A stretch of DNA of 64,000 nt from Patescibacteria group bacterium (GTDB lineage Bacteria > Patescibacteriota > Minisyncoccia > UBA6257 > 2-01-FULL-56-20), in contig JBBTUL010000012.1 in assembly GCA_038063755.1 (NCBI GenBank), forward strand, positions 64,572-128,571, read 5' to 3'. This document shows positions 15,925-64,000 of the stretch, one piece after another (the stretch's first letter is position 1; each line of letters begins with the position of its first letter). The notes under the pieces are model-generated. The model saw nothing but the letters and a program-made list of their open reading frames with translations. It was not told the DNA's origin and did no database searches. A program made the position numbers and the translations under genes.

Positions 15925-16070
15925 TTTTTCTCTCGCGTGGTTTACCACGAGCGAGTTTCGCTAAGGCGGGACGAAAACATGCCCCTCGAATTCCTCGGGG
16001 CACTCGATTCGTAATGTGGTTTACCACGAGTGAGTCCCGCTAAGGCGGGACGAATCGAGTGGAGATGGAG
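15925..16070 (+). repeat. ssrA-flank repeat copy B (immediately downstream of the tmRNA; last 11 nt overlap the ssrA 3' end)
   Basis: Direct repeat of 13397-13541; each copy contains two hairpin modules with stems gtgg/ccac and cccgc/gcggg. Confidence 0.85.
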
Positions 16071-26288: not shown

Positions 26289-26317
26289 TTAGTACGCTAT
26301 GTTTTTATTTTTATTCG

Positions 26318-26400
26318 TGGGGATGGGGAGAGTTGAACTCCCACGTCCGAAGGACACACGGCTCTGAACCGTGCGCGTCTGCCAGTTCCGCCACATCCCC
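26318..26400 (-). tRNA. tRNA-Leu (anticodon CAG), type II with long variable arm; CCA not encoded
   Basis: rc sequence GGGGATGTGGCGGAACTGGCAGACGCGCACGGTTCAGAGCCGTGTGTCCTTCGGACGTGGGAGTTCAACTCTCCCCATCCCCA. Acceptor GGGGATG/CATCCCC, anticodon stem CACGG/CCGTG with loop TTCAGAG, variable arm TGTCCTTCGGACG, T-arm GGGAG-TTCAACT-CTCCC. Confidence 0.85.
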
Positions 26401-45718: not shown

Positions 45719-46909
45719 ATGCCCCTTATCTTTAAAAAAATATTATTGAGCGTTGTCTCGCTCACGATCTTGGTCGGAGTTTGTGAGGTGTCTTCTCGTT
45801 TCTACGAAAGAAAAGAAATTCGGGATTTCCCGCCAGCGCCCGACAATGCGGAAGGATTCGGAGATTTCAAAGGGTTGCTTCGCTGGGTTGGCGATCTCGG
45901 ACGAGTTCAGGGATACATTGTCCCCGAAGGAGGCGTCGACTATCTGCCGTACACGATTACGGGACTCAAACCCAGCTTCCCGTTTCATATAAAGAACGTT
46001 GATTATCGGACCAACGCCCAAGGATTCCGGCACGAAGGAGAGATCGTCATGCCGAAACCCGCCGGAGCCTTCCGCATTTTTTTGCTCGGCGGATCGACCG
46101 TTCAAGGAATATTCAATCACCAATGGACCATCTCGTACTATCTTGACCGCGCCCTTAAGGCAAACCATCCGAACGTGGAAGTGATAAACGCCGGAGTGGT
46201 TGGGTATCGTTCGCAAAGCGAGATGGCGCTTCTTACGACCAAGATCCTCGACATGGACCCCGACCTGGTTGTCGTACTCGACGGGAGGAATGATCTTTAT
46301 TACTCGATACTTCCGACATGGCGGAATCGTGAGGGTGCGGATTATCTTGCCGAAAAGACTATTCTTGATAACCTGGTGAATTATCCTTCCGAGGTTCAAA
46401 TTTCGAAATACGCCGCGAAGGTATTTCTAAAGAGGAGTTCGCTTGCTACGCGCATCATTAACCTCACCCACCGGAGCGGCGCCTCGAGCACATATCCGCC
46501 GGATGCGAAGATTAAAGACGAGGCGGTAAAGACATATCTTGGAAATCTTGCGATCATGAAAGCGATTCTGGAATCCCGTGGAATTCGAGGCATTCTTGCA
46601 TTTCAACCGACGCTCGGATATTGCAAGGACGATACCAGTGATTACGAGAAAAGCGTGATTTCGTATCTTGTCGAGGTCGAGAAGAGCAACTGGCTCGATG
46701 AGGTTCGCTCGAAGTGGAAGGAAGTGGGCGAACGCGTCGATGGCATCCCGGATTCTTCCCTGGTTGAGACACACGATCTCACGTGCCTTTTTTCCGACAT
46801 GAAGGAAACCGCATATATCGACTCCGTCCATTACGTCCCCAAGTCTTCGCAGGTGCTCGGCGAGCGATTCGCGCAAATCGTGGAATCGCAGTTTCTTACC
46901 CGCAAATGA
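45719..46909 (+). CDS. SGNH/GDSL hydrolase family protein
   Basis: N-terminal TM segment; GDS-like block FRIFLLGGSTVQG; D-x-x-H block DSVHYVP; paralog of the split gene at 41676-42738. Confidence 0.65.
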   Translation: MPLIFKKILLSVVSLTILVGVCEVSSRFYERKEIRDFPPAPDNAEGFGDFKGLLRWVGDLGRVQGYIVPEGGVDYLPYTITGLKPSFPFHIKNVDYRTNAQGFRHEGEIVMPKPAGAFRIFLLGGSTVQGIFNHQWTISYYLDRALKANHPNVEVINAGVVGYRSQSEMALLTTKILDMDPDLVVVLDGRNDLYYSILPTWRNREGADYLAEKTILDNLVNYPSEVQISKYAAKVFLKRSSLATRIINLTHRSGASSTYPPDAKIKDEAVKTYLGNLAIMKAILESRGIRGILAFQPTLGYCKDDTSDYEKSVISYLVEVEKSNWLDEVRSKWKEVGERVDGIPDSSLVETHDLTCLFSDMKETAYIDSVHYVPKSSQVLGERFAQIVESQFLTRK

Positions 46910-48195
46910 GATTGCTCCTCGCACCGCGGAAGCTCGACGTGTTCGATCTGGTAACGTCCGGGGTGGTCTACTACGCGAGCGCGTATCTTTTTCCGCTCGT
47001 CGTTTTTTTTCACCTTCCCACAAAATACTTCGATTTTTCGAGCGCTGCATGGAGCCCCGCGACACTCCTTTACGTAACCGGAGGACTTTTGGCTTTCTTG
47101 GTTGGCTCCGTGACTGCCCCCCGAGGGACGGTGCGCTGGGTGCTTGGCGCGACAAAATTTATTGCGAGACCCTGGAGTCCCGGCCGGAGGACGATCGTCT
47201 ATGCGGGATCGGCCGTCGCCACAGTTCTCTTCTGTGCGGTGTGGTTGTGGGGAGGATCGTATTTTCATCTCGATCCTCAGGGCGTGGGAAAAATCGGCGT
47301 GCGATTCTATTCCCTCATCGGATCTCTTCGTTGGCTTTTCCTCGTGACACTCTTGGTGCTTACATTCGAGCGGTTTTTTACCGCACTCCGCGAGGGCGGC
47401 AAAGAAGTCTCTCGACTGCGGATTATTGCGTGGACTCTTCTCCTTGCGGCCGCCTGCTACGGCTTCTTCTCCGCATCCCGCTATTCGGTGCTCTTCCCGT
47501 TTTTCTCTTACATGATCGTTCGCCACTATTACTGGAGGAAATATATGATTCGGGATATCGCGTCCATCGCGCTCCTCGTGATGGTGGGGATGGCGCTCAT
47601 CAATATCTATAAAGAACCGAATATCTGGCTCACCTCGTACCGCCCGAACAACGCATCGCGGACGATTGCGGCAACGCAGTACGTAGTAGACAACAGCATC
47701 GGACGGATAAGTCCGTACGCGGTACTCGAAAAAATATTCACTCCTCATAAGGAATATCGAGGGACGACCCCCGCGAACTTTCTGATCAACATTGCCATTC
47801 CCCGTATTTTATGGAAAGAGAAACCCGTCATGAGCCCCGACGGAAACGCGTTCGGGAGGGCGCTTGGCATCTTGCAGCCGGACGACTACCGGACAACGGT
47901 TGCGCCAACCATGATGGGTGATTTTTATCTAGGCTTCGGCTTGTGGGGGATGTTTTTCGCGATGTTTTGCCTGGGATTTGTATTCAGAGTATTGGCGCGA
48001 GTTTTTCTCGGAGGAGGGGGAGCAAGCCCGACCGGCATTCTTGTATATGTGGTGTTATGGCTTCAGCTTGTGAAGGGAATGGAGGATTGGGCCTCTCCTG
48101 TTTTCGCCGGGACAATAAAAATGATTGCTATCCTCCTTATTGTCCACCTCTTTGCGATGAAACGGATGGTGCCCGCAACCCCGGCTACTTCGTAA
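46906..48195 (+). CDS. Putative oligosaccharide repeat-unit polymerase (Wzy-like) membrane protein
   Basis: Start MRLLLAPRK at 46906 (ATGA overlap); about 11 predicted TM segments; no other motif. The 5' extension in the ORF track overlaps the previous gene. Confidence 0.5.
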   Translation: MRLLLAPRKLDVFDLVTSGVVYYASAYLFPLVVFFHLPTKYFDFSSAAWSPATLLYVTGGLLAFLVGSVTAPRGTVRWVLGATKFIARPWSPGRRTIVYAGSAVATVLFCAVWLWGGSYFHLDPQGVGKIGVRFYSLIGSLRWLFLVTLLVLTFERFFTALREGGKEVSRLRIIAWTLLLAAACYGFFSASRYSVLFPFFSYMIVRHYYWRKYMIRDIASIALLVMVGMALINIYKEPNIWLTSYRPNNASRTIAATQYVVDNSIGRISPYAVLEKIFTPHKEYRGTTPANFLINIAIPRILWKEKPVMSPDGNAFGRALGILQPDDYRTTVAPTMMGDFYLGFGLWGMFFAMFCLGFVFRVLARVFLGGGGASPTGILVYVVLWLQLVKGMEDWASPVFAGTIKMIAILLIVHLFAMKRMVPATPATS

Positions 48196-50149
48196 TTCGA
48201 TCGATAAATTCGAGCGCAGGTATAGTGTCTTCAATCGAGACCGGAGTTTGTTCGTGAGGGTCTTTCACTGCTCGAACGAAGAGGCGATAGAGCTCCTCGT
48301 GTGATGTAGGGGGCTTTCGAAATCGCGAAACAGCATATGCAATAATCGTGCGCAGTTCATGCACAAGTCTCGTTGCAGGAGTCGGAGATCCCGAAAGGCA
48401 CTCAAGGCTTTCGGGGTAGAAATGAAGCTTGTATACAACGTCTTTCTTTACGAATTCAAGCCATGTTGCCGCGTATGGAGGGTGAAGACGCAGGTCAATA
48501 TCTACCGAGATTCCGCGGTCCGTTTTTGCTCTTGCAAGCACCCTCCGAAGGGTTTTGTGGTCTCCGCCTCGCGCAGTTTCAAGATGCTCTACGTCAACCA
48601 CCCTTCCCCCAAACTCTGCTACGAGATCAAGAAAGTGATATGCCATTTCGTGAGTGAGGGCATTTTTAAACTCTTCACGCCAGCTTTTTGCGCTTTGTAT
48701 CGTTGGTCCGCTCCAGAACCGCAGAGAAATTGATTCCAGCGGTTCCCCGATGGTTTCGGAAAGGGCCCGACGGAGGGCGAGTACGTTTCTGCGGAAACGG
48801 TAGTTGTTCACCACGCACACTCGGACACCATGTTCTTTCGCTAGGACGTCAAGATCGAGCGCCTCGCGTAGTTTATGAGAGACTGGTTTTTCAACGAGTA
48901 CGTGAATTCCTCTTGCGACGAATTCTTTTGCGAGGGGAACGTGTGTGTCTGGCGGGGTTACTATAACCGCAAAATCGACAGACTGCCCGCTTAGCTCTTC
49001 CGAAGTCTCAAGCACAGATGCATTCGGGAAGAATTTATTCCTAACCTCCATCGCTCTTCCTCGATCTGCATCATAGAGCGCTTGCACCTTGATGCGTGGT
49101 ATGCGTTGGATTGCCGGAGCATGAAGCGTTTGCGTCGCAAAACCGCAACCAATGATCGCGATTCGTACATCGCCAGAAGAAAGATCAGCAGCACCTTTTA
49201 TGGCTGTGTTGAGGGGGGTTTTCGGATTCCACCCTGTCTTTTGCATCAATTTCTGCGGTGAGTAAAAGACATCTTTTTGCATGCGCGAAAAAAGATAGGC
49301 AATCCTTCCGATGCGCCCGTGTTTCGAAAAAAGCGATCCGAACACGGTTATGGGCGCAAAAAGAATTCGTGGAACGGGGATAAATCGAACGGGTATCTTG
49401 GAGTGAAGATTGTATTCTTCAACGATTGATCGAACAGTCGGCTGTTCGGTGCTTACAACGTTATATATCGCAGACCCTTCGTTTGCCTCAAGACAGGCCA
49501 AGATCGCACCGTATACATCATTTACATGCACATAGGGCATTCTCTTGTTTGCGGTCCCTGGCGCAATGCAAAAATTCTTGAAAAAAAATCCGCAACCGAT
49601 AAGCGGAGCCTTCATGTTTTCTGCGTAAATAAGTCCAGCTCGCAAGATGTCGACCGGCACTCGTAGGGTGGCAAGGCGAGAAGTAAATACATTTTCTCCA
49701 AGAAGTTTGGAGTGTGCATACCATCCGCGTAATTCAGGATGCGGTTCAAGCGCATGATTTTCAGTTACGACATTTTCGTTTTCGCTCGAAAAAAGATCGT
49801 AGATGCCGACCGAGCTCATGACAAGCAGCCGCTCAATGCCGTATTTCTCAGCGAGGGACAGGAGGGTTTCTGATCCAGTGACGGTCGTCTGATGGTAATC
49901 GGTCCATCTTCCTCGTGTGCCGGCAGCGAGGTGGACGATGATATCAGACGCTTTTACAAAGGGCTCAAGCTGTGTCGCCTCCGCAATGTCGCCTTCAAAA
50001 ATACGGAGCGGAACCCCTTTTGTCGCAAGGAAGGCTATTTTTGATCGATCTCGGACGTATACATTAACCGCGTACCCGTCGGCGAGAAAGCGAGAGACGA
50101 GATGTTTTCCAACGAATCCGCTGGCTCCAGTTATGCCTATTCGCTTCAT
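48185..50149 (-). CDS. Bi-domain oxidoreductase: NAD-dependent epimerase/dehydratase (N) fused to Gfo/Idh/MocA oxidoreductase (C)
   Basis: N-terminus MKRIGITGASGFVGKHLVSRFLADGYAV (extended-SDR Rossmann); C-terminal half has RIAIIGCGFATQTLHAPAIQRIPRIKVQALYD (Gfo/Idh/MocA N-terminal fold); 654 aa. Confidence 0.8.
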   Translation of the reverse strand: MKRIGITGASGFVGKHLVSRFLADGYAVNVYVRDRSKIAFLATKGVPLRIFEGDIAEATQLEPFVKASDIIVHLAAGTRGRWTDYHQTTVTGSETLLSLAEKYGIERLLVMSSVGIYDLFSSENENVVTENHALEPHPELRGWYAHSKLLGENVFTSRLATLRVPVDILRAGLIYAENMKAPLIGCGFFFKNFCIAPGTANKRMPYVHVNDVYGAILACLEANEGSAIYNVVSTEQPTVRSIVEEYNLHSKIPVRFIPVPRILFAPITVFGSLFSKHGRIGRIAYLFSRMQKDVFYSPQKLMQKTGWNPKTPLNTAIKGAADLSSGDVRIAIIGCGFATQTLHAPAIQRIPRIKVQALYDADRGRAMEVRNKFFPNASVLETSEELSGQSVDFAVIVTPPDTHVPLAKEFVARGIHVLVEKPVSHKLREALDLDVLAKEHGVRVCVVNNYRFRRNVLALRRALSETIGEPLESISLRFWSGPTIQSAKSWREEFKNALTHEMAYHFLDLVAEFGGRVVDVEHLETARGGDHKTLRRVLARAKTDRGISVDIDLRLHPPYAATWLEFVKKDVVYKLHFYPESLECLSGSPTPATRLVHELRTIIAYAVSRFRKPPTSHEELYRLFVRAVKDPHEQTPVSIEDTIPALEFIDRITK

Positions 50150-52351: not shown

Positions 52352-53590
52352 TCAAGCCAGAGTTTTTGAGATAAAAACCTCTTTCAGGAGTTTTTCCAAA
52401 TGGGCCGATATTTTCTTTCGGTCATAGTGCTGTTCTGCATATCTGCGCCCGTTACTTCCCAGCTTTTTTGCGAACGATGGATCGTGATAAATCTTTAGAA
52501 TCGATTCTTTCAAAGATTCGGGACTTTCTGGTTCTGCGATCAAACCACAATTTGCAGCTTTGATAATCGCGGCTCCCTCGCCGTCTAGGTTGATAATAAT
52601 CGGCTTTTCCGCGGACATGTAGTCGAACATCTTTGATGGTAGTACATCTCTGAAAAGCGCCTCATTTTTATAAGGAATTATGGCCACACCAGCTCGAGAT
52701 GCGAAGGCCGGCATCTCGGCGCGGGGACGTTCTCCGGTAAAAATGACATTTTTAAGACTATATTTTTGCGCCAGCTCTTCGCACTGTTTTTTTAGAGCTC
52801 CTTCGCCGACAACCAGAAACACGACATCGTTTTTATCCTTCAGGAGGTTCGCCGCTTCGATCACGACGTACGGGGCCTGCGCGAGTCCAAGAAGACCGGT
52901 GTACAGAACCACAAATTTATCTTTCAGGCCATAACGTTTCTCTATTTCCGCGTAATCCACGCCCGCGCGAAACAGGTCCAGCTCCGCTCCATTAGTAAGA
53001 AGGGTCATTTTTTCCTGCGACACCCCTTTTTCAATATGCAGGCGCTTAATGATGCCCTGAGCGTTTGCTACCACCGCCACGCTTTGTCGATAAATCGTCT
53101 TTTCGATCACCTCAACAAATCGGAAGGCAATATTTTTCTTGAGCATGCCGACCGCGACAGCGGAATCGGGCCAAATATCTCGGATTTCCGAAATCAACGG
53201 TATGCGTCTCAATTTTGCTACGAGCGCTCCGGCAAAAAGCCCGAAAAGAGGAGGAGATGTAGCGAAAACAACATCCGCTTTTTTTACCCGCATACCCGCC
53301 ATGAAGGAGGAAAAGAAAAACGATACATAATTCAAGACTCTAAACAGAAATGATTTTTTCGTGGTTATCCAAACCCAGGATCGAACTACCTGTACGCCTC
53401 CCCAGCTTTCTCTTTGAAAAAACCCATTCTTGTATCCAGGAAACAATACGCCCTTGGGGTAGTTGGGAGCTTCACAGATTACGGTCACATCGTGTCCGGC
53501 ACCTGCGAGGTGTTTCGCAAAAAACCCGAGACGATGCGCCGGAGCATTTGTTTCTGGTGGGAAATACTGGGTGAAAATGAGAACCTTCAT
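52352..53590 (-). CDS. Glycosyltransferase family 4 (WbuB-like)
   Basis: N-terminus MKVLIFTQYFPPETNAPAHRLGFFAKHLAGAGHDVTVI; 412 aa. Confidence 0.85.
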   Translation of the reverse strand: MKVLIFTQYFPPETNAPAHRLGFFAKHLAGAGHDVTVICEAPNYPKGVLFPGYKNGFFQRESWGGVQVVRSWVWITTKKSFLFRVLNYVSFFFSSFMAGMRVKKADVVFATSPPLFGLFAGALVAKLRRIPLISEIRDIWPDSAVAVGMLKKNIAFRFVEVIEKTIYRQSVAVVANAQGIIKRLHIEKGVSQEKMTLLTNGAELDLFRAGVDYAEIEKRYGLKDKFVVLYTGLLGLAQAPYVVIEAANLLKDKNDVVFLVVGEGALKKQCEELAQKYSLKNVIFTGERPRAEMPAFASRAGVAIIPYKNEALFRDVLPSKMFDYMSAEKPIIINLDGEGAAIIKAANCGLIAEPESPESLKESILKIYHDPSFAKKLGSNGRRYAEQHYDRKKISAHLEKLLKEVFISKTLA

Positions 53591-53662: not shown

Positions 53663-54937
53663 ATGAAGGACAGAAAAAAAACAACAATTAGCGTAATTGG
53701 CCTTGGTTATATGGGTCTCCCGATGGCGTGTCTGCTGGCCAAGCAGGGTTTCAACGTTGTGGGGGTTGATGTCGACCGCGACAAAATCAAAAAATTGCAG
53801 AAGGGGAAGATGATATTCCACGAGCCAGGACTCGCGACTCTTTTTAGAAGGAATCGGAAGCGGATATCGTTTCACTCAAAGCCAGCGTCAGCTGACGTTT
53901 TTATTGTCGCAGTGCCGACACCGATCACTCAAAAAAAGAGAGCAGATCTCTCTTTTGTGAAAAGCGCCGTGCGCTCAATTGTGCCGGTTTTAAGAGAGGG
54001 AAACCTGGTGATTATTGAATCCACGGTTGCGCCCGGGACTTCGTCCGGCGTAGTGAAGAGGATTCTCGACAAGAAGAAATTCAGATACGCCCTTGCGCAT
54101 TGTCCTGAAAGAGCCTTTCCGGGAAGAACTCTTAAGGAGATGATAGAGAACTACCGCGTGATAGGCGGACTTGATCAGGGCTCAGGAGAGATGGCAAAGC
54201 GGATCTATAAAACATTCGTGAAGGGCAATATATTTCTTACAGACCTTACTACCGCAGAAACGGTGAAACTCCTCGAGAATTCATATCGCGATGTAAACAT
54301 CGCATTTGCCAATGAAATGGCGAAGCTCGCTCACCGCATAGGTATTAACATGTGGGAGGCAATTCGTCTTGCCAACTACCACCCGCGCGTCAACATTCAC
54401 GTTCCTGGGCCGGGTGTCGGTGGACACTGCATCCCTCTTGATCCTTGGTTTTTGGTAGACGTGGCGCGCAAGGAATCCCCGCTTTTGAAGAAGTCGTTAT
54501 TATTGAACGAGCAAATGCCCTTGTTTGTGGCACAGCTTGCGGCTGATCATGTCCGTAAATATGGACTCAAGATAAAACGTTTTGGCATCTTGGGTGTGGC
54601 GTATAAGAAGAACGTTGACGATGCCAGAGAAACTCCGGCGCTCCGACTTGCCGAAGAGTTCAAGCGTCGCGGATATGAGGTTCGCTGTGCTGACCCCTAC
54701 GTCAAGCACTTTCCGCATCCGCTCGTGAAACAAGACGATCTCATCCGTTGGGCGGACGCTCTCGTGATAGTCACGGACCACGACATATACAAGGAGGCAA
54801 AGCTGTCCTCGGAGAATATTAAGCTCGTCATAGATACGAGAAATATGTTGAGCGACAGACAGAGAAAAGCCCTTGTTGGCGCCCACGTCATTCTCCTTGG
54901 CGCGGGGGAAGAAAAAATCACCCATGGCAGAGCATAA
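53663..54937 (+). CDS. Nucleotide-sugar dehydrogenase (UDP-N-acetyl-D-mannosamine dehydrogenase, WecC-like)
   Basis: ISVIGLGYMGLPMACLLAKQGFNVVGVDVD Rossmann fold, catalytic-Cys region GGHCIPLDP; adjacent to wecB. Confidence 0.8.
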   Translation: MKDRKKTTISVIGLGYMGLPMACLLAKQGFNVVGVDVDRDKIKKLQKGKMIFHEPGLATLFRRNRKRISFHSKPASADVFIVAVPTPITQKKRADLSFVKSAVRSIVPVLREGNLVIIESTVAPGTSSGVVKRILDKKKFRYALAHCPERAFPGRTLKEMIENYRVIGGLDQGSGEMAKRIYKTFVKGNIFLTDLTTAETVKLLENSYRDVNIAFANEMAKLAHRIGINMWEAIRLANYHPRVNIHVPGPGVGGHCIPLDPWFLVDVARKESPLLKKSLLLNEQMPLFVAQLAADHVRKYGLKIKRFGILGVAYKKNVDDARETPALRLAEEFKRRGYEVRCADPYVKHFPHPLVKQDDLIRWADALVIVTDHDIYKEAKLSSENIKLVIDTRNMLSDRQRKALVGAHVILLGAGEEKITHGRA

Positions 54938-56117
54938 ATCGACTAGGAAAGTTGCTGTGGTTTTCGGCACTAGGCCGGAAGCGATCAAGCTCGTCCCGGT
55001 GATACGCGAGCTTCAGCATCACGACCGGATTAAGCTTTTTACGTGCGTTTTCTGGCAGCATAAAAAAATGTTGCAACAAGTACTGGGTGTGTTCGATATC
55101 ATCCCAACCCACCAGATACCATTCCCCCTGGGCGACAAAGGAATATGGGGATCCGGCGGGATTTTGAAAACCGTATTGAACGGTCCTCGGCTCGGGTACG
55201 GACTTTTTAAATTCTTTTCTTTTTTGCGCCGGGAGCGTCCCGATCTGCTTATCGTCCAGGGAGACACCTCAACGGCATTTCTTGCGGCATTCCTGGCATT
55301 TCATTTCAGAATTTCCATCATGCACGTTGAAGCGGGACTGCGCACATTCGACAAATACGCTCCATTTCCCGAGGAGATAAATCGACGACTTATTAGTGTT
55401 CTTGCGGATATTCACTGTGCGCCCACGGATCACGCCAGAGAAAATCTTGTGCGTGAGCAAGTTCCCGAGAGCTCGATATTCGTCACTGGAAACACCGCGC
55501 TTGATGCCTTGCGGATTATTCTCAAATCGGAAAAGCGTGAGGATTTTCGAAGGTGGGAGAGCTTGCTTCTTGCAAAGGGACAGAACCTCCGAGGAGGCAA
55601 GAAGTTATTGCTAATCACGGCGCATCGTCGGGAGAGCTTCGGAGAAGGCCTCGAGAATATCTGTGGAGCCATCAGGCAGATTGCGACTTTGCGATCCGAC
55701 GTAATTTTCTTATACCCCGTGCACCTGAACCCGAATGTCCAAAAAGTCGTTCGCGAAAAACTGTCGGGCATCTCAAACGTGATCCTCACAGAACCTCTCT
55801 CATATGAAATATTCTCTTTTCTAATGGATGCGGCATATCTGATTCTGACCGATTCGGGGGGGATACAGGAAGAGGTTTCGTTTCTCGGCAAGCCGATATT
55901 GGTGTTGCGCGAAAAGACCGAGCGTCCCGAAGGGATTACGGCCGGCAATGCCATGCTTGTCGGGGCAAACAAAGAAAGGATTGTCCGTGAAGTTCTCCGC
56001 CTTCTCGACGATACCGATCAGTACCGGTTTTTTGCGAGAAAACACACCGCATTTGGTGATGGTCATGCCGCAGAAAGAATCGGAGTGATCATTGAAAGCT
56101 TCTTTGGGGTAGAATAA
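54924..56117 (+). CDS. wecB: UDP-N-acetylglucosamine 2-epimerase (non-hydrolysing)
   Basis: Start MAEHKSTRKVAVVFGTRPEAIKLVPVI at 54924; conserved epimerase_2 blocks throughout. Confidence 0.9.
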   Translation: MAEHKSTRKVAVVFGTRPEAIKLVPVIRELQHHDRIKLFTCVFWQHKKMLQQVLGVFDIIPTHQIPFPLGDKGIWGSGGILKTVLNGPRLGYGLFKFFSFLRRERPDLLIVQGDTSTAFLAAFLAFHFRISIMHVEAGLRTFDKYAPFPEEINRRLISVLADIHCAPTDHARENLVREQVPESSIFVTGNTALDALRIILKSEKREDFRRWESLLLAKGQNLRGGKKLLLITAHRRESFGEGLENICGAIRQIATLRSDVIFLYPVHLNPNVQKVVREKLSGISNVILTEPLSYEIFSFLMDAAYLILTDSGGIQEEVSFLGKPILVLREKTERPEGITAGNAMLVGANKERIVREVLRLLDDTDQYRFFARKHTAFGDGHAAERIGVIIESFFGVE

Positions 56118-56121
56118 TAGG

Positions 56122-58305
56122 ATGAAGCAAGTATTTCAAAATCCGAAATCCGGAAAAACGAGGACCGAAGAAATCACCCCACCGCCCGTCCGCCGTGGTG
56201 GAGTTTTCGTAAAGAATATCTTTTCCGTCATCAGTGTCGGTACCGAGAGGAGCGTCATTGCCCTGTCGAAGAAAGGGTTACTGCAAAAAGCGAAAGAGCG
56301 ACCCGATTATGTCCAGAAGTTTTTGCTTGCCGTCAGAACGAAAGGATTTCTCGCCGCGTGGAAGATGGCTCAAGCAAAACTCGCGACCGACATAGCGCTT
56401 GGCTACTCAAGCGCCGGTGAAGTGCTCTCCGTGGGCGACGACGTGGAGGAGTTCAAAGCGGGGGACAGAGTTGCATGCGCGGGGCAGGATTACGCTTCGC
56501 ACGCGGAGTATGTATTTGTTCCGAAGAATCTTTGCGCCAAGATCCCGGCCGGGGTGGCGGAAGACGAAGCCGCTTTTGCGACACTTGGCGCTATCGCCAT
56601 GCAGGGGATCAGGCGCGCGGATCTTACTCCCGGAGAAACGGTGGGCGTAATCGGTTTGGGACTCTTGGGTCAGATCGCAACCCGCACGCTCAAGGCCTAC
56701 GGCCACCGAGTCATCGGATTCGATGTAAACTCCGGCCAGATCGCGTTTGCGAAAGAAAACGGCATTGATGCGGAGGTAATCATCGGAAAAGACGATGCGG
56801 ACGGCATAGTCGCGAAACTTACCGGCGGACGCGGATTGGATGCGGTTATCGTTTACGCGAGCACGAAGAGCGATGAACCCCTGAAGCTTGCGGTGCAGGT
56901 CGTTCGTGACCGGGGGAGAATTGTTCAGGTTGGCAATGTTCTCGCCAATATTCCATGGCGCGACTTCATAGCGAAGGAACTCACGTACCACTCTTCGCGC
57001 TCCTATGGCCCTGGAAGATACGACAAGAATTACGAAGAGCGAGGGAACGACTATCCGGTCGGATATGTTCGTTGGACGGAGCGACGGAACATCGAGGAAT
57101 TTTTGCGGCTTCTCGCGGACAAGAAAATGTCGGTCAAGAATCTCATTACCAGGTCTTTCGACATCGCGGAAGCGGAGAAGGCATACGAATTGGTGTTCAA
57201 CCCCCAAGGGTTAGTGCACGGAATCGTGCTTCGTTATCCGAAAGAAGGGAAGCCCGGCCCGTCCTTTATCAGATTGCGTGAGAATAATATCGTTTCTCGG
57301 GAACCGCTTGCGAAGCCCATTATAAACATCGGACTTATCGGTATCGGATCGTTCATGAAGTCGACCGTTATTTCGCACTTGAAGGAGGTGGAAGGAGTCC
57401 AAGTTGCCGCGGTTGCGCACACGAAAGGCCTTCCCGCTAAAGAGCTCGCGAAGGAAGCGGGAGCGGAATACGTGACATCCGAGTACGAGCGCCTGATTGA
57501 AGACAAAAATATCGATCTCATCATTTGCGCCACGCGGCACAGTTCGCATGCGAAAATCGCAAAAGAGGTTCTTGCTGCGGGGAAAAACCTCTACATCGAG
57601 AAGCCGCTCGCGCTCAACAAGGAAGATTTGGACGGAGTTATGGAGGCGGCGCGAAAATCGAAAGGGAGACTTCTCGTCGGATTCAATCGAAGGTTTTCTC
57701 ATCACTTTATGGAAGCGAAAAAAGAATTCGATGGGTCGAGTACGCCGCTTAATATCCTGTATCGGGTAAACGTGGGACCACTCGAATCGAACCACTGGTC
57801 GTACGACCCGAAAGAAGGCGGAAGGATTTTAGGCGAAGCGTGTCACTTCGTCCACGCGCTTCAGTACCTCACGGGTTCGCTTCCGAAGCGTCTCTGGACT
57901 GCGGCAATTCCCGCAGGAGGATCGGTTGCTCACGAAGAGAATTTTTCACTTACGATCGAATACGAGAACGGATCGCTCGGCACCGTCTCCTACTCCGCAC
58001 TCGGGAACTTCCGCGTGCCGAAGGAATATATAGAAATATACGGCGACGGGAAGATAATGATCATCGATAACTTCAAGAGTGGCCGTGTGATCCTTCCTTC
58101 GCGAACGAAAAACCTGAATCTGCGCCATCAGGACAAGGGCTATACCCGCGAGATCGAATTGTTGGTGAAGGCAATCAAGGACGGGACGCCGTCTCCGATG
58201 TCGCTCGATGAAATTTATGCCGCGCACCTCGCATCTTTCGCGATGATCGAGTCATTAAAAACCGGTAAGCCGATTTCTTTCGAGGACGGGACACAAAAAG
58301 CCTGA
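56122..58305 (+). CDS. Bi-domain oxidoreductase: zinc-type (MDR) alcohol dehydrogenase domain fused to Gfo/Idh/MocA oxidoreductase
   Basis: N-terminal half has GETVGVIGLGLLGQIATRTLKAYGHRVIGFDV (MDR Rossmann); C-terminal half has INIGLIGIGSFMKSTVISHL...ICATRHSSH (Gfo/Idh/MocA); 727 aa. Confidence 0.8.
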   Translation: MKQVFQNPKSGKTRTEEITPPPVRRGGVFVKNIFSVISVGTERSVIALSKKGLLQKAKERPDYVQKFLLAVRTKGFLAAWKMAQAKLATDIALGYSSAGEVLSVGDDVEEFKAGDRVACAGQDYASHAEYVFVPKNLCAKIPAGVAEDEAAFATLGAIAMQGIRRADLTPGETVGVIGLGLLGQIATRTLKAYGHRVIGFDVNSGQIAFAKENGIDAEVIIGKDDADGIVAKLTGGRGLDAVIVYASTKSDEPLKLAVQVVRDRGRIVQVGNVLANIPWRDFIAKELTYHSSRSYGPGRYDKNYEERGNDYPVGYVRWTERRNIEEFLRLLADKKMSVKNLITRSFDIAEAEKAYELVFNPQGLVHGIVLRYPKEGKPGPSFIRLRENNIVSREPLAKPIINIGLIGIGSFMKSTVISHLKEVEGVQVAAVAHTKGLPAKELAKEAGAEYVTSEYERLIEDKNIDLIICATRHSSHAKIAKEVLAAGKNLYIEKPLALNKEDLDGVMEAARKSKGRLLVGFNRRFSHHFMEAKKEFDGSSTPLNILYRVNVGPLESNHWSYDPKEGGRILGEACHFVHALQYLTGSLPKRLWTAAIPAGGSVAHEENFSLTIEYENGSLGTVSYSALGNFRVPKEYIEIYGDGKIMIIDNFKSGRVILPSRTKNLNLRHQDKGYTREIELLVKAIKDGTPSPMSLDEIYAAHLASFAMIESLKTGKPISFEDGTQKA

Positions 58306-59282
58306 TGTTGAGGGATAGGATCGATTATTTCAGGCGCATCTTCAGGGTTTACCTGACCTCGGACAAGGGATACCTTTCGTTTTGGCACGAACGTCCGGCC
58401 GTGAACGAAAATCTGATTCCCGGAGAACTGGGAGGCTACTACATGACCTTCGAGGACAAGGCCTCCTATCTCGGGCCAAAAGATGACGACGGGGTGATAC
58501 TCTTCGACTATTTTGCCGACATCGGAAGACAATATAACCCTCTTGCGGTCGCGCAATACGGACTGGCACACTATAACCTATACCTGAAGACCAAGCAGCG
58601 GGAACACCTCGATGTTGCACGGGCGCAGGCCGATTGGCTCGTGAAAAATCTCGAGGAGAACGATGCGGGCATTCCTGTCTGGAAACATAACTTTCGCTGG
58701 CGCTATAAACAGTACCTCGCTCCTGGGTGGTACTCGGCGCATTCCCAGGGTACAGGGATCTCGCTTCTGGGGCGGATGTATCATACGACGGGCGACGAGC
58801 GATACTTATATACGGCGAAAGAGGCGTTTCGGGCGCTTGATACGCGCATAGGAGACGGTGGCGTAAAGTGCATCGATGCCGCGGGAAATGTATGGCTTGA
58901 AGAGTACCTCGTAGACCCTCCCACACATATCCTGAACGGTTTTCTCTGGGGGCTGTGGGGCGTCTGGGACTACTATCTTCTTACCAACGATCCGCGGGGG
59001 TCGGGTCTCTTCGGGGATTGTATTAAAACACTGCTGGGGAATCTGAAACGATACGACACAGGATATTGGTCCCTGTATGACCTCTCCCAGCAATCAATGC
59101 ACATGCTGGCGAGCCCGTTCTATCAGCGCCTCCATATCGTACAGATGCGGATAATGTTTCTGATCACACACAACCCCCTCTTTGATTTTTACTGCCGAAG
59201 GTTCACTTTGTACGAGTCCCGCGGATGGAATCGATATCGCGCGATTCTGTACAAAGCGATTTTCAAACTCTTCTACTTCTAG
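58305..59282 (+). CDS. D-glucuronyl C5-epimerase C-terminal-domain-like protein
   Basis: 325 aa; blocks NPLAVAQYGLAHYNLY, PGWYSAHSQGTGISLLGRMYHTTGDERYL and NGFLWGLWGVWDYYLL resemble the (alpha/alpha)6 C5-epimerase C-terminal domain. Confidence 0.55.
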   Translation: MLRDRIDYFRRIFRVYLTSDKGYLSFWHERPAVNENLIPGELGGYYMTFEDKASYLGPKDDDGVILFDYFADIGRQYNPLAVAQYGLAHYNLYLKTKQREHLDVARAQADWLVKNLEENDAGIPVWKHNFRWRYKQYLAPGWYSAHSQGTGISLLGRMYHTTGDERYLYTAKEAFRALDTRIGDGGVKCIDAAGNVWLEEYLVDPPTHILNGFLWGLWGVWDYYLLTNDPRGSGLFGDCIKTLLGNLKRYDTGYWSLYDLSQQSMHMLASPFYQRLHIVQMRIMFLITHNPLFDFYCRRFTLYESRGWNRYRAILYKAIFKLFYF

Positions 59283-61204
59283 GAAGCGTTGCTGCTGAAC
59301 CAGTAGTCATACCAGAGTGAGAGCGAGATGAGGTTCCAGATTCTGAAGTTGTGGTTCACCGCCCCGCTTTGATGGAGTGATATGATGCGGTCGATGTAGT
59401 CGTAATCAAGGATTCCAAGCTCGCGGAGTTTCGAATTCTTGATCGCGGCGAGAAGCGGTTCTGCCGTTTTCGGATTTTTGAGCCATTCGGTCATGGGTGC
59501 TCCGAAGCCCTGTTTTTTTCGCGAGATGATCTCGTCGGGAATAATGCCTTGCACCGCTTTCTTAAGAATATATTTCGTTATGCGTTTCTTGAGTTTCAAT
59601 TTCTCCGGTATATGGAGCGCAAGTTCGACAAGGCGTTTGTCGAGGAACGGCACGCGCGCCTCGATTGAATGGGCCATGCCCATTTTGTCCACGCGGGCGA
59701 GAAGGAGTTCGGGGAGGCGAATTTTTAGCTCAAGGTAAGTAAGTCGTTCAAGGAAGTCTGCACCGGGATGTACGCGGTCAACCTCGTCGTAGTAGCTTTT
59801 TATCGTCGCGTATTCGTGTCCTGGCGTAAGCGTTGCGCGATATTCGGGAGTAAGCAGCTGCCTTTTCTGAGAGGGAGTAAAGGCGATGGCGTTTCCCCAA
59901 AACGGTTCTTCTCCGTCCGCAAGGCGTCTAAAATACTCTTTTTGGAATTCGTATTTGCCTGAGAGAAGCGGCGAAAGCATCCAATGCGGAATTTTGCGCA
60001 GAAATCTTGGAAGATAGCGCAAAAATCTCCATCCGGCGTTGTGGAGTCGAACCGAAAGAAGATATGCGGGATATCCGGCGAAGAGCTCATCGGCTCCTTC
60101 GCCGACTTGGGCCACAATAACGCAGCTCTTCCGGATAAGCTTCGAAAGATAATAGACAAGAAAACAAATTTGATCGCCGTTCGGGTCGTCTGCAGAGAAT
60201 CCGTAATCTGGGAGGAACGCGAGGAGGTCCTTCTCGCTCACGATGAGCTCGTGCGACTTTGCCCCCAAAAGCTCAACGATCTTTCGGGAGTATTCGAACT
60301 CATTGTAATGAGGATGCTCGTCGGACCCGACGGAAAAGGTCTCGACCGGCTTCCCGATGGCCCTACTCATAAGCGTCGCGTTTGTCGAAGAGTCGATGCC
60401 GCCGGAGAGGAAACATCCGAAAGGAACGTCCGAGACCATTTGCTTTCGAATGGAGTCTGTGAGAAGAGATCTAATTTCGTGAATATATTCTTCCTCGCTT
60501 TTTTCGCTCTCGCCCTCACGCATCAGAGGATTCCAGTACTCGCGGACGTTAACGTCCGCGCCTTTTTCGATTAAGAGAAAATGAGCCGCAGGAAGCTTTT
60601 TGATATCGCGGAAAAGGGTAAGCGGCGCGGGCATACAGGCAAACGTAAGATAATAAGAAACATTTTCTTTAGCAAGTTCTTTTCTAAATGACGGGTGGGC
60701 GAGAATCGCCTTCGGCTCGGAACCAAAGTAGAACGTGTCGTCCTGGACGGCATAGTAGAAAGGTTTAATACCGATGTGGTCGCGCGCTGCAAACAAAACT
60801 TCTCGCTTTTCATCCCAGATCACAAACGCGAACATGCCGTTTAGCCTTTTTACGACATCTGTGCCGTACTCTTCGTATCCATGGAGTATCGTCTCGGTGT
60901 CCCCGTGAGTTTTAAGAGTGTGCCCTTTTTTTAGAAGGTCCTCGCGAAGCTCCTGGAAGTTGTAAATTTCACCATTGAACGTGATCCAAACAGTGCCATC
61001 TTCGTTTGTCATCGGGCACGCCGCTTCCGGAGAAAGATCGATAATCGCGAGGCGGCGCTGGCTTAGCCCAACGTTTTTGTTCTTCGAAATGAAGTTAGCG
61101 GCACCATCGGGCCCGCGATGTTTAAGCGCATCGCGCATATGCGAGAGTTCCGAATCCAAAATTTCCCCGCCTTTTAACTTATATAATCCGGATATGCCGC
61201 ACAT
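59279..61204 (-). CDS. Asparagine synthase (glutamine-hydrolysing) family amidotransferase (AsnB/WbpS-like)
   Basis: N-terminal MCGISGL (Ntn glutaminase Cys2), PP-loop SGGIDSS; 641 aa. Confidence 0.9.
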   Translation of the reverse strand: MCGISGLYKLKGGEILDSELSHMRDALKHRGPDGAANFISKNKNVGLSQRRLAIIDLSPEAACPMTNEDGTVWITFNGEIYNFQELREDLLKKGHTLKTHGDTETILHGYEEYGTDVVKRLNGMFAFVIWDEKREVLFAARDHIGIKPFYYAVQDDTFYFGSEPKAILAHPSFRKELAKENVSYYLTFACMPAPLTLFRDIKKLPAAHFLLIEKGADVNVREYWNPLMREGESEKSEEEYIHEIRSLLTDSIRKQMVSDVPFGCFLSGGIDSSTNATLMSRAIGKPVETFSVGSDEHPHYNEFEYSRKIVELLGAKSHELIVSEKDLLAFLPDYGFSADDPNGDQICFLVYYLSKLIRKSCVIVAQVGEGADELFAGYPAYLLSVRLHNAGWRFLRYLPRFLRKIPHWMLSPLLSGKYEFQKEYFRRLADGEEPFWGNAIAFTPSQKRQLLTPEYRATLTPGHEYATIKSYYDEVDRVHPGADFLERLTYLELKIRLPELLLARVDKMGMAHSIEARVPFLDKRLVELALHIPEKLKLKKRITKYILKKAVQGIIPDEIISRKKQGFGAPMTEWLKNPKTAEPLLAAIKNSKLRELGILDYDYIDRIISLHQSGAVNHNFRIWNLISLSLWYDYWFSSNAS

Positions 61205-61746
61205 TACAAAACAAATTCGTGGATCGAAGCGCTTTTAAGATTAAGCTCGATATCTTCTCCGAGCATTTTATGAAGCAGACGAATAATGCCACCGTGTGTT
61301 ACGAGGATGACGTTTCGATGGCGAGTTTTTTTGAGCTCTCTTAGAAAAGAAGTGAGGCGTGATTTGACCTCTGTGGCGGACTCTCCTCCATACGGTCGGT
61401 AATCGTATTTCAAAAGAGTTTTGTCGATATATTCCATGTCTTTTCCTGCAATCTTAGCGACCTCCTTCCATGTCTTTCCTGAGAGCGATCCAAAATCACA
61501 CTCTGAAAGTTCCTCTTTTTCAGTTATCTTCATGCCGACTTTTTTCGCGATGACATCGGCTGTCTTCCTTGCGCGCTTCAGAGGCGAAGAAAATATTGCA
61601 TCAACCTTCTCTTGGGCGAGCATGTCGGCAAGATCGTTCGCCTGAGTCTTCCCTTCGGTGTTTAGCGACAGGTCCTCCCTTCTTCCCTGAAGCTTTCCGC
61701 TTTTATTAAAATCGGTTTCTCCGTGCCTTACGACGACGAGATTCAT
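61204..61746 (-). CDS. Histidine phosphatase family protein (phosphoglycerate-mutase-like)
   Basis: MNLVVVRHGETDFN (RHG motif), ...HGGIIRLL; 180 aa. Confidence 0.85.
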   Translation of the reverse strand: MNLVVVRHGETDFNKSGKLQGRREDLSLNTEGKTQANDLADMLAQEKVDAIFSSPLKRARKTADVIAKKVGMKITEKEELSECDFGSLSGKTWKEVAKIAGKDMEYIDKTLLKYDYRPYGGESATEVKSRLTSFLRELKKTRHRNVILVTHGGIIRLLHKMLGEDIELNLKSASIHEFVL

Positions 61747-62192: not shown

Positions 62193-62220
62193 CCCGCCAA
62201 TAATCTGGCGGGTTTTTTTA
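62193..62220. terminator. Bidirectional rho-independent terminator
   Basis: Stem cccgcc / ggcggg with loop aataatct and a T-run; sits between convergent genes. Confidence 0.7.
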
Positions 62221-63558
62221 TTTATTCGTCACGAAGATATACCGAATGGTTCGGATGATGATGAGAAGATCAAGTACGAACGAGCGATTTTTTACGTAAT
62301 AAATATCATATTCAAGTTTCGCGCGCGCCTCTTCAAGCGAAGAGGAGGGTTTGTAGTTTATCTGCGCCCAGCCGGTTAGTCCTGGTTTTACCACATGGCG
62401 AATGTCGTAGTAGGGGATGTCCTGGTATTTTTTTGCGAGCTCGCTCCGCTCCGGACGTGGTCCGGTGAAAGAGATATCTCCCTTTATAATATTCCAAAGT
62501 TGAGGGACTTCATCGGCATGAGTAAGGCGAAGGAGCTTGCCGAGAGAAGTGATCCGGGGGTCATTCTCTTCTGTCCAGAGCGGCCAATTGTCTTTGTGAC
62601 CCTCCATTTTCATTGTTCTGAATTTATAGAGCGGGAAAAGCTTCCCGTTTTTCCCGAAGCGTTCTTGGATGAAGAGGGCTGGTCCTCGCGAGTCGATTTT
62701 TATCCCCAGCGTCACGAGAAGCGCGATGGGCGAAAGGATAATCCCGATTATAAGGCCGAGGAGAATGTCGAGCAGGCGCTTCGCGGCATCGTAGAACGGG
62801 CGGCGCATGGCAATGTGCTCGATTACCCACCCGTCCTTGATTTCGTCGAGCGGTACGCGATCGAGGATGAGTTCATAAAAATCCGAAAAACTTATGACGG
62901 CTGTTTCAAATGGAGACATGGAGTAGATAGCATGCACGATGTCCGATTTCTCCGAAAGTTTTGGCTGGACCACGATTGTTCGTGCGCCCGATTCTTTAAC
63001 TAGGGCGGGGATTTTTTTTAATTCATCTGGAGAGGCGTTCTTTATCCACCCGGCGAAGCGATAGCCCGCATGGAGGTTTTCTTCGAGATAGCGCGCGGTT
63101 TCTTCGATGCGCGGTGAGTTTCCGATTACGACAACAGGTGTTCTGCCGGAACGGAATACCGCGCCCAAGAAGGTCCTCCAGAGATAGCTCTCAAGAAAGA
63201 ATACAGTCGTAAAGATGAGGAGATTTGTTTTTGGCGCAAGCTCAAAGAACGGGCCGAAAAGATAGAAAAGAACCACGGAGGCGATTGCGGATATCGCGGT
63301 TGCAAGCGTCAGCTCGCTTGCAATGATGCTTTGCGTCCGGAAAGATTTTTGGCGGTAGAGATCAGCAAGATAAAAAACGAAAAGCCAAATAAGGAATATA
63401 GCCGAAAACGGGAGTGCGTGGTCTTCCAGGCGATCAAAAAAAAGATTTCGAGGGTAGCGTATAAAAAGCGTGACGGCAAGAGCGAAGAAAAGAAGTGCAA
63501 CGTCGCTTGCGGCGAGAAGCAATTTCTTTATTGTTGGCATATAAAAACATCCTACCAC
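62218..63558 (-). CDS. Undecaprenyl-phosphate sugar phosphotransferase (WbaP/CpsE-like initiating transferase)
   Basis: C-terminal bacterial sugar transferase domain KRLLDILLGLIIGIILSPIALLVTLGIKIDSRGPALFIQERFGKNGKLFPLYKFRTM...PGLTGWAQ; 446 aa with N-terminal TM segments. Confidence 0.9.
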   Translation of the reverse strand: MVGCFYMPTIKKLLLAASDVALLFFALAVTLFIRYPRNLFFDRLEDHALPFSAIFLIWLFVFYLADLYRQKSFRTQSIIASELTLATAISAIASVVLFYLFGPFFELAPKTNLLIFTTVFFLESYLWRTFLGAVFRSGRTPVVVIGNSPRIEETARYLEENLHAGYRFAGWIKNASPDELKKIPALVKESGARTIVVQPKLSEKSDIVHAIYSMSPFETAVISFSDFYELILDRVPLDEIKDGWVIEHIAMRRPFYDAAKRLLDILLGLIIGIILSPIALLVTLGIKIDSRGPALFIQERFGKNGKLFPLYKFRTMKMEGHKDNWPLWTEENDPRITSLGKLLRLTHADEVPQLWNIIKGDISFTGPRPERSELAKKYQDIPYYDIRHVVKPGLTGWAQINYKPSSSLEEARAKLEYDIYYVKNRSFVLDLLIIIRTIRYIFVTNK

Positions 63559-63603: not shown

Positions 63604-64000
63604 CTAAGAAATCCTTAAAAGCCGATGCAGTGACGGAGGGATGAAGCGCAGCAACGATTGTTCCCGTGTGAAAAAGAGAATTGCAAAGTACGCAAGGGCG
63701 CCAAAACAGACCGAGAGGAGAACGTGCATTTCAAAGCTCGACAGGAGCCAAACCAAAAGACCCATGATGAGAGAGGACGGAATAATCTTTTTAAGGTGTG
63801 GAAGGGTGGTAAAACCGCTAGTTTTTTTGAGCGTGATCCATATGGCTCCCGTCGAAAGCACTTGGGCGACAACGGTCGCGATCGCGGCTCCTGCAATTCC
63901 ATACGGCGGGATAAGGAAGTAGTTAAGAATAACGTTTCCGATTGCTCCCAGGCCGAGCGATGTTATAAAGATTTTTTGTTTTCCTGCCGCAAAAACGGCG
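63604..64000 (-). CDS. Polysaccharide flippase (Wzx/MOP family), C-terminal part; N-terminus beyond window end
   Basis: Frame open from 63604 to the window end; ...YGIAGAAIATVVAQVLSTGAIWITLKK... typical of polysaccharide biosynthesis (Wzx) C-terminal helices. Confidence 0.55.
   Translation of the reverse strand, partial: AVFAAGKQKIFITSLGLGAIGNVILNYFLIPPYGIAGAAIATVVAQVLSTGAIWITLKKTSGFTTLPHLKKIIPSSLIMGLLVWLLSSFEMHVLLSVCFGALAYFAILFFTREQSLLRFIPPSLHRLLRIS

Follow-up and report, generated by a model that had tools for sequence, protein, structure and literature searches.

A predicted cytoplasmic, single-domain relative of the animal glucuronyl C5-epimerase in a conserved surface-glycan gene module of Patescibacteria

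Using a 64,000-nucleotide stretch of a Patescibacteria metagenome-assembled genome (MAG; assembly GCA_038063755.1, contig JBBTUL010000012.1, positions 64,572 to 128,571; referred to here as the window), we confirm that the gene at positions 58305 to 59282 encodes a real relative of the catalytic domain of the animal D-glucuronyl C5-epimerase (GlcE), with a resemblance that goes far beyond chance. On balance, we favour a reading in which this protein, which we call the epimerase, carries out a cofactor-free C5 inversion of a residue derived from N-acetylmannosaminuronic acid (ManNAcA) on an undecaprenyl-diphosphate (undecaprenyl-PP)-linked unit, and in which this residue is then amidated. This reading is based on homology, fold, residue conservation, the lack of export signals, a conserved neighbourhood and domain fusions, i.e., both catalysis and substrate are predicted, and we place higher confidence in a function as uronic-acid C5-epimerase than in the exact substrate or the level at which the enzyme would act.

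58305..59282, + strand: epimerase, predicted soluble single-domain GlcE-family (PF06662) uronyl C5-epimerase, 325 aa (ATG-to-stop open reading frame (ORF), Pfam, phmmer, AlphaFold2 model)

An earlier note on this DNA had likened the protein to the animal enzyme's C-terminal domain, and our searches bear this out. The epimerase matches the Pfam C5-epim_C profile (PF06662) with E=1.8e-41 and 142 bits (gathering cutoff 23.3), with the match spanning epimerase residues 125-300 and profile positions 6-186 of 188. A phmmer search against PDB sequences identified human GLCE (6hzz, E=2e-26) and zebrafish Glce (4pw2, E=6e-25) over epimerase residues ~100-305, together with a weaker N-terminal motif match to GlcE (PLAVAQYGLAHY in the epimerase versus PIQIAQYGLSHY). 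An NCBIfam scan of the epimerase returned no specific model and LanC-type matches at noise level only; the name that NCBI gives to an identical protein is 'D-glucuronyl C5-epimerase family protein [Patescibacteria group bacterium]'. The AlphaFold2 model, generated from 17 homologs, has a predicted local confidence (pLDDT) of 92 and a predicted TM-score (pTM) of 0.90, and when this model was compared to the PDB using Foldseek, the best 8 matches were all GlcE chains (E~1e-13). The structural superposition that had been proposed as a check places the model on human and zebrafish GlcE with a root-mean-square deviation (rmsd) of 1.7-2.0 Å over ~212 columns and at 30% identity, and the next folds found, GH76 and cellobiose 2-epimerase, follow with E~1e-4 and rmsd >5 Å. 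Neither a beta-helix of the AlgG/AlgE type nor a heparinase II/III toroid plus beta-sandwich was matched by the epimerase in the Pfam, PDB sequence and Foldseek searches.

The catalytic residues of GlcE, in human numbering, are E499, Y500, N510, Y560 and Y578 (PMC13308652), and a HMMER alignment places E200, Y201, N211, Y258 and Y273 of the epimerase at these positions, so that all five are present, with E200, N211, Y258 and Y273 kept in 85/85 sequences of an 85-sequence alignment of the subfamily. By profile, by fold and by catalytic residues, the epimerase is a PF06662 catalytic domain, and neither of the outcomes that the earlier note had named as refuting, a missing C5-epimerase profile match or missing key catalytic residues, was obtained. 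Across the relatives collected, T, A, V or F takes the place of human GlcE Y500 in L017, L023, L037, L040, L042, L051, L055, L064, P0095, P0116, P0117 and P0176.

The resemblance is to the helical domain only. Animal GlcE is built from an N-terminal beta-hairpin, a beta-sandwich and a C-terminal helical domain (PMC13308652). The epimerase model is one helical domain, and its significant GlcE alignment is limited to chain residues 310-518, beyond which only a weak 60-residue motif match (AQYGLxHY) was found; the GlcE beta-hairpin and beta-sandwich domains have no counterpart in the epimerase, either in the phmmer alignment or in the model. There is no signal-like N-terminus and no transmembrane or hydrophobic segment in the epimerase (highest 19-residue Kyte-Doolittle mean 0.86), and the protein is therefore predicted to be cytoplasmic. 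Judged as a full animal GLCE, the epimerase falls short in architecture, in secretory or luminal location and in heparosan context.

The second half of the window is a surface-glycan cluster, and the epimerase is the last of four co-directional genes in it. The genes of this cluster that matter most for the argument are as follows:

46783..48195, + strand: candidate Wzy-type polymerase (weak Pfam match to O_anti_polymase, E=3.6e-4, below cutoff; homologs in L001 and L005)
52352..53590, - strand: WcaI/WbuB-like family 4 glycosyltransferase (GT4), counterpart of the GT4 directly 3' of the epimerase in most related loci, here inverted and upstream
53663..54937, + strand: WecC-like nucleotide-sugar 6-dehydrogenase (376 and 347 bits against UDP-ManNAc dehydrogenase models, 160 bits against UDP-Glc dehydrogenase)
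54873..56117, + strand: WecB, non-hydrolysing UDP-GlcNAc 2-epimerase (Epimerase_2 1.4e-98; TIGR00236 387 bits against a cutoff of 210)
56122..58305, + strand: bi-domain oxidoreductase (biOx), 727 aa, with one half like medium-chain and alcohol dehydrogenases (MDR/ADH) and one Gfo/Idh/MocA half
59279..61204, - strand: asparagine (Asn)-synthase-type glutamine amidotransferase, starting MCGI, so that Cys2 is present
61204-61746, - strand: histidine phosphatase (His_Phos_1)
62218..63558, - strand: initiating polyprenyl-phosphate glycosylphosphotransferase (PGT; Bac_transf; TIGR03025 343 bits against a cutoff of 296)
63615..64000, - strand: Wzx flippase, 3' part, running past the window end (39% identity to residues 362-474 of the L001 Wzx)

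The WecC, WecB, biOx and epimerase genes are separated by gaps of at most 19 nt, and the TGA stop codon of biOx overlaps the ATG of the epimerase (TGATG); these four genes are predicted to form an operon in which the epimerase is translationally coupled to biOx. The true start of WecB is likely to be the GTG at 54957, which lies behind an AGGAAA motif. This arrangement agrees with the WecC-type uronic-acid formation upstream of the epimerase that had been noted before, in that the protein encoded at 53663-54937 is closest to UDP-ManNAc dehydrogenases and is followed by WecB. The amidotransferase gene runs towards the epimerase gene from the opposite strand and overlaps it at the 3' end, and its product would form a uronamide. 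Promoter and terminator scans gave counts at background level.

Upstream of the operon lie genes for GT4 and GT2 transferases, methyltransferases, a carbamoyltransferase, a GDP-mannose dehydratase and Wzy-like proteins, and the locus as a whole is predicted to be a pathway of the Wzx/Wzy type. Polymerisation would therefore take place after export, and a cytoplasmic enzyme in such a pathway would meet only nucleotide sugars or undecaprenyl-PP-linked repeat units. Among the scanned locus proteins there is no UDP-Glc dehydrogenase and no glycosyltransferase of the heparosan-synthase type, the glycosyltransferases being generic GT4 and GT2 enzymes. The earlier description of the enzyme as heparosan-type does not survive these findings and the absence of the GlcE hairpin and beta-sandwich, and the idea that it acts on a polymer is not supported, given the lack of a signal peptide or transmembrane segment in a Wzx/Wzy-type setting. 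An iduronic or altruronic-type product had also been suggested; since the C5 epimer of D-ManNAcA is N-acetyl-L-gulosaminuronic acid (L-GulNAcA) (PMC3901696, PMC13463779), UDP-ManNAcA made by WecB and WecC leads elsewhere. The existing annotation of the gene is correct, and the gene looks like an ordinary family member, for which the heparosan and iduronate framing is to be dropped.

Gene order around the amidotransferase differs from that in related Patescibacteria, where the order is Asn synthase, Wzx, PGT; in the window, the histidine phosphatase follows the Asn synthase gene and Wzx is displaced beyond PGT. The inverted upstream GT4 partner is common to the window and L015. Together, the displaced Wzx and the inverted GT4 look like a local rearrangement of the module.

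To place the operon in context, we compared 87 related loci, with the window proteins as tblastn queries, and with denominators that differ by feature:

biOx directly upstream of the epimerase: Patescibacteria (Candidate Phyla Radiation, CPR) 13/14; other phyla 6/60
biOx within 10 kb: Patescibacteria 9/9; other phyla 19/43
WcaI-family-like GT4 directly downstream: Patescibacteria 11/14; other phyla 45/62
Asn synthase within 10 kb: Patescibacteria 9/9; other phyla 13/43
PGT within 10 kb: Patescibacteria 9/9; other phyla 1/43
WecB within 10 kb: Patescibacteria 0/9; other phyla 16/43 (directly upstream 11/60)
WecC within 10 kb: Patescibacteria 1/9; other phyla 2/43

This comparison demonstrated that biOx is the most constant upstream partner of the epimerase in Patescibacteria, and that the usual order in other phyla is biOx, WecB, epimerase, GT4. 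L085, a locus in a distant genome of 57.5% GC and 3 Mb, contains Asn synthase, biOx, WecB, WecC, epimerase and GT4 genes in this order, all co-directional, and these same six genes are those of the window module. In acidobacterial loci the epimerase-GT4 pair adjoins an initiating WecA-type transferase, and in L003 a CapK-like ligase, analogous to VpsH of Vibrio cholerae, lies beside the biOx, WecB and epimerase genes. A module of biOx, epimerase, GT4 and amidotransferase, with or without WecB and WecC, recurs in Patescibacteria, Acidobacteriota, Chloroflexota and other phyla, and the link of WecB/WecC to this module recurs independently, not universally. In 40 loci, most of them acidobacterial, the gene immediately upstream of the epimerase encodes a protein of 351-364 aa with no Pfam or NCBIfam match and with an Asp-box-like SxDxGxTW motif (e.g., L044:8904-9959 and L072:8810-9904); it occupies the slot held by biOx in Patescibacteria, and the window does not contain it.

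The pairing of biOx with C5-epim_C is reciprocal, as 3/3 biOx homologs sampled at 45-47% identity have a C5-epim_C gene downstream, within a biOx family that is very large (at least 8,000 matches at E<=1e-20). The MDR half of biOx carries LGYSSAGEV where zinc alcohol dehydrogenases have LGHESAGTV (GHE to GYS), and because of this replacement the canonical, catalytic zinc ligands are predicted to be absent. The EKP motif is retained in the Gfo/Idh/MocA half, which most resembles inositol, aldose and glycoside 3-dehydrogenases. A literature search on the function of biOx, or on a heparinase/Asn-synthase cassette, found nothing relevant. We considered biOx as a substitute for WecC, i.e., as a post-transfer C6 oxidase, since many biOx-WecB-epimerase-GT4 loci contain no WecC; this was rejected as a general explanation because biOx and WecC are both present in the modules of the window, L015 and L085 and because the Gfo/Idh/MocA half resembles dehydrogenases that oxidise ring hydroxyls. 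Heparinase II/III-like genes, which might be an alternative partner of biOx, were unsupported as such at this depth of sampling, all three sampled contexts having C5-epim_C.

The wider family is large. A word-indexed search with the epimerase gave 2,179 matches at E<=1e-5, and an exhaustive phmmer search of 1.84 billion representatives of 50%-identity clusters identified 4,545 homologs at E<=1e-3 and 2,874 at E<=1e-10. Two peptide motifs alone were sufficient to find epimerase relatives in 293 species-level genomes, among them Patescibacteria, Acidobacteriota, Chloroflexota, Desulfobacterota, Bacteroidota, Leptospira, Planctomycetia and Nitrospira, and the only relatives in a plasmid collection were remote ones from Deinococcus and Priestia (27-30% identity). 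Candidates for prokaryotic PF06662 members were listed already in 2011 (PMC3068255). The statement in the earlier note that bacterial homologs are rare is therefore not tenable; its companion, that few are characterised, stands, in that a single bacterial PF06662 enzyme has been assayed, that of Bermanella, and this on a non-native substrate (PMC13308652).

Several members of this family carry C5-epim_C in fusion with other domains. C5-epim_C is joined to a Wzx flippase in P0176 and to GT4 in P0139 and P0145, is duplicated in tandem in P0144 and P0186, and is found in other members with cell-wall-binding CWB2 repeats, PKD domains or dockerin. From these architectures, the forms with CWB2, PKD or dockerin must be extracellular, and because of the fusion partners seen, the PF06662 family is predicted to contain both cytoplasmic and extracellular forms. 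The tail of P0176 past its last transmembrane helix has 11 K/R in 40 residues, by a crude method, which suggests that its epimerase domain is cytoplasmic. The proteins with unusual PF06662 architectures are P0176, P0139, P0145, P0220, P0264, P0212, P0196, P0144 and P0186.

In the pathway that we propose, WecB and the WecC-like dehydrogenase would make UDP-ManNAcA, as their family scores suggest, and the uronic acid, possibly re-tailored first at a ring hydroxyl by biOx, would be transferred to the undecaprenyl-PP-linked repeat unit. The epimerase would then invert C5 of this lipid-linked residue at the cytoplasmic face, prior to flipping by Wzx; by homology, the C5 proton alpha to the carboxylate would be removed and a proton returned from the opposite face without a cofactor, using a GlcE-type set of E200, Y201, N211, Y258 and Y273. 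By our own stereochemical reasoning, the product would be of the L-GulNAcA type, or of the N-acetyl-L-galactosaminuronic acid (L-GalNAcA) type if biOx also inverts C3, and the Asn-synthase-like amidotransferase would turn its carboxylate into an amide, giving L-GulNAcA(N) or L-GalNAcA(N). Such an amide would remove the acidifying carboxylate and so lock an otherwise reversible epimerisation, a proposal that we base on the analogy with the locking of iduronic acid (IdoA) by 2-O-sulfation and on the order in which VpsJ acts before VpsH. Every characterised uronic-acid C5-epimerase acts post-transfer, i.e., GlcE, the Bermanella enzyme, AlgG/AlgE, VpsJ and Agl32 (PMC4432689, PMC13308652, PMC13463779), and the Wzx- and GT4-fused members of the family point to action on lipid-linked sugars.

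Several observations weigh against this pathway as a description of the whole family, or of the window itself. The WecC-like protein scores below the equivalog cutoffs of the UDP-ManNAc dehydrogenase models, and within 10 kb of the epimerase in Patescibacteria relatives WecB is found at 0/9 loci and WecC at 1/9; because these genes are mostly not near the epimerase in this group, ManNAcA may not be the universal substrate. Since the proposed pathway does not account for biOx, the true substrate may be something other than plain ManNAcA. WcaI/WbuB-like glycosyltransferases usually use L-configured nucleotide donors, so that the WcaI/WbuB-like partner GT4 fits epimerisation at the nucleotide-sugar level instead. 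The GT4 that is fused in P0139 is of another type, at 22% identity to the WcaI-like partner, and since it is not WcaI-like this fusion speaks for generic coupling to a GT4 only. Lastly, Y201 is kept in 77/85 subfamily sequences and is T, A or V elsewhere; either the equivalent tyrosine is dispensable in the subfamily, or the members without it work differently.

The main rival to a lipid-linked substrate, which we judge to be rather unlikely, is that the epimerase converts UDP-ManNAcA, or a biOx-modified derivative of it, to a UDP-L-uronate, and that the WcaI/WbuB-like GT4 then transfers the L-sugar. The predicted cytoplasmic location and the tight coupling to nucleotide-sugar enzymes in one operon are consistent with this, as is the constant presence of a WcaI-family-like GT4, from a group that usually transfers L-sugars, as the neighbouring gene. 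A review of E. coli O antigens also shows a pathway to UDP-L-IdoA that runs through a 'Gae C5-epimerase', stating expressly that it has no experimental data behind it (PMC7685785). It is the post-transfer action of all the characterised enzymes (PMC4432689, PMC13308652, PMC13463779) that argues against a nucleotide-sugar substrate, together with the family members that are fused to Wzx or that carry CWB2, PKD or dockerin, since flippase-fused and extracellular forms, as judged from their architectures, cannot use nucleotide sugars. It is more doubtful still that the enzyme is a GlcE-type epimerase acting on a different uronic acid supplied from elsewhere, such as glucuronic acid (GlcA), mannuronic acid (ManA) or galacturonic acid (GalA), with the adjacency of WecB and WecC in the window being incidental. 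Most CPR relatives have no WecB and WecC within 10 kb, L002 has GDP-mannose pathway genes near the epimerase instead, and a WecC-like gene is nearby in only 2/43 non-CPR loci, all of which count in its favour; the presence of WecB/WecC inside the co-directional module in two unrelated lineages (the window and L015; L085), and of WecB directly upstream of the epimerase in 11/60 other loci, argues against it.

Two further explanations have little to recommend them. That the protein is not an epimerase at all, i.e., that it is an alpha/alpha-barrel lyase or hydrolase acting, for example, in chain trimming, or a non-catalytic partner of GT4, is very unlikely. Epimerases and lyases share their first chemical step, and the epimerase has weak matches to alpha/alpha toroids of the GH76, GH127 and LanC types; the GlcE match is nonetheless ~9 orders of magnitude better than that to any hydrolase fold, the catalytic residues of GlcE, including a tyrosine for each face, are invariant apart from Y201 as described above, and the setting is predicted to be cytoplasmic and biosynthetic. 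The least probable explanation is a heparosan-type epimerase that converts GlcA to IdoA at the level of a glycosaminoglycan (GAG)-like polymer, and context largely refutes it: no UDP-Glc dehydrogenase or heparosan-synthase-type glycosyltransferase is present among the scanned locus proteins, the epimerase has no export signal in a Wzx/Wzy route that polymerises outside the cytoplasm, and the GlcE beta-hairpin and beta-sandwich are absent, with only chain residues 310-518 aligning significantly. The 30% identity to GlcE, the full conservation of the catalytic residues and the epimerisation of O-desulfated heparin by the Bermanella homolog in vitro (PMC13308652) are the points in its favour.

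Returning to C5 inversion on a lipid carrier as the favoured reading, we put forward more tentatively, as possible rather than probable, that biOx, epimerase, GT4 and amidotransferase, with or without WecB and WecC, constitute an undescribed, phylum-spanning pathway to an L-configured 2-acetamido-hexuronamide, a rare sugar, that is assembled on a lipid carrier. For example, the two redox domains of biOx could invert C3 of ManNAcA by oxidising and then re-reducing it, and the epimerase could invert C5, to give L-GalNAcA(N). If such a pathway exists, the epimerase would be the first GlcE-family enzyme to act on an acetamido-uronic, non-GlcA substrate, and a second, independent solution to the reaction of VpsJ. 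An L-configured acetamido-uronamide made on a lipid-linked intermediate would extend the substrate range of GlcE-type enzymes beyond GlcA, would provide a function for a widespread bi-domain oxidoreductase, and would offer a way into the chemistry of surface glycans in uncultured CPR bacteria. PF06662 has thousands of diverse prokaryotic members against one assayed bacterial enzyme, and the subfamily of the epimerase sits in a tightly conserved, uncharacterised gene module that spans phyla; we regard it as moderately interesting to ask what this abundant subfamily acts on natively and what its biOx partner does.

Other features of the window lie outside the operon and the genes considered with it:

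16057-16412, - strand: tmRNA gene (Rfam 120.7 bits; tag peptide ANQRVAAPAFAFA)
26317-26400, - strand: tRNA-Leu(CAG)
41676-42296 and 42250-42738, + strand: two overlapping ORFs of 206 and 162 aa in the glycan cluster, with no Pfam match
43221-45014, + strand: NodU/CmcH-type carbamoyltransferase
48185-50149, - strand: fusion protein of 654 aa with a short-chain dehydrogenase/reductase (SDR) epimerase/dehydratase and a Gfo/Idh/MocA domain (homologs in L004 and L009 at 43-45% identity)

The first half of the window contains housekeeping genes (RNase Y, RNase J, a class-I tRNA synthetase and iPGM), and the two overlapping ORFs at 41676-42296 and 42250-42738 could be a frameshifted or a novel gene. 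A carbamoyltransferase of the NodU/CmcH type, as present in the window, is also encoded ~1.2 kb upstream of the epimerase in 10/43 non-Patescibacteria loci (L031, L043, L044, L047, L050, L056, L057, L076, L079 and L081), which hints that the shared glycan is O-carbamoylated.

Compared to known systems, the epimerase shares its Pfam family, its helical catalytic domain and the five catalytic residues with animal GLCE (PDB 6HZZ, 6I01, 4PW2, 4PXQ), and the same cofactor-free abstraction and re-addition of a proton at C5 of a uronic acid is presumed for it. At 325 aa, compared to the 617 aa of GLCE, it lacks the beta-hairpin dimerisation domain, the beta-sandwich and the membrane anchor. GLCE is Golgi-luminal and works in an N-sulfated heparosan context on a chain of at least 6 sugars, whereas the epimerase is predicted to be cytoplasmic, in a ManNAcA-type Wzx/Wzy context, and probably acts on a short lipid-linked unit. 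RED65_08024 of Bermanella marisrubri is, like the epimerase, a bacterial PF06662 member, and is the only bacterial one characterised biochemically (PMC13308652, PMC4432689), with activity shown only on O-desulfated heparin or heparan sulfate (HS). Compared by description, this enzyme of 448 aa is much closer to GlcE (BLAST E=2e-76, PMC3068255 Table 2). Nearer in size, again by description, is Gae of E. coli O112ab and Shigella boydii 15, a single-domain PF06662 form of ~323 aa in a Wzx/Wzy O-antigen cluster (PMC3068255), and whose presence coincides with the one E. coli O antigen that contains L-IdoA (PMC7685785), an assignment made by correlation; the substrate of Gae is presumably GlcA-derived, unlike the ManNAcA-type context of the epimerase. 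AlgG/AlgE and Halobacterium Agl32 likewise epimerise C5 of uronic acids after transfer, in the case of Agl32 on a short lipid- or protein-linked glycan, using folds and active sites that are unrelated or remotely related to those of the epimerase, i.e., a beta-helix in AlgG/AlgE and, in Agl32, an alpha-helical fold without the GlcE catalytic residues (PMC13308652).

A coupling of a GlcE-type epimerase with an oxidoreductase that acts on ring hydroxyls may also be relevant to Methanothermobacter. The pseudomurein of this genus contains N-acetyl-L-talosaminuronic acid, formally the C5 epimer of N-acetyl-D-allosaminuronic acid (D-AllNAcA), or the 3,5-di-epimer of N-acetylglucosaminuronic acid (GlcNAcA), and to our knowledge its biosynthesis is unresolved. 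Methanothermobacter species carry PF06662 homologs (PMC3068255 Table 2).

The closest functional precedent for the proposed pathway is the Vibrio cholerae exopolysaccharide (VPS), in which VpsA, VpsB and VpsK add ManNAcA to a glucose already attached to the lipid; VpsJ next inverts C5, so that L-GulNAcA is formed, and VpsH finally joins glycine to the carboxyl group as an amide (PMC13463779). The order of events matches, with WecB/WecC homologs supplying ManNAcA, a cytoplasmic C5 epimerisation of a lipid-linked residue and a subsequent amidation, and the window, like the VPS locus, encodes a WecB/WecC-type supply of UDP-ManNAcA. The VPS pathway differs in that it has no bi-domain oxidoreductase and in that it adds glycine via a CapK/PaaK-like ligase, whereas the pathway in the window would add ammonia via an Asn-synthase-type enzyme. 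VpsJ itself is described as a new class of epimerase with an AGE-like fold and no informative sequence matches (PMC13463779), which by description sets it apart from PF06662, and the family of the epimerase would therefore represent a different scaffold for the same logic.

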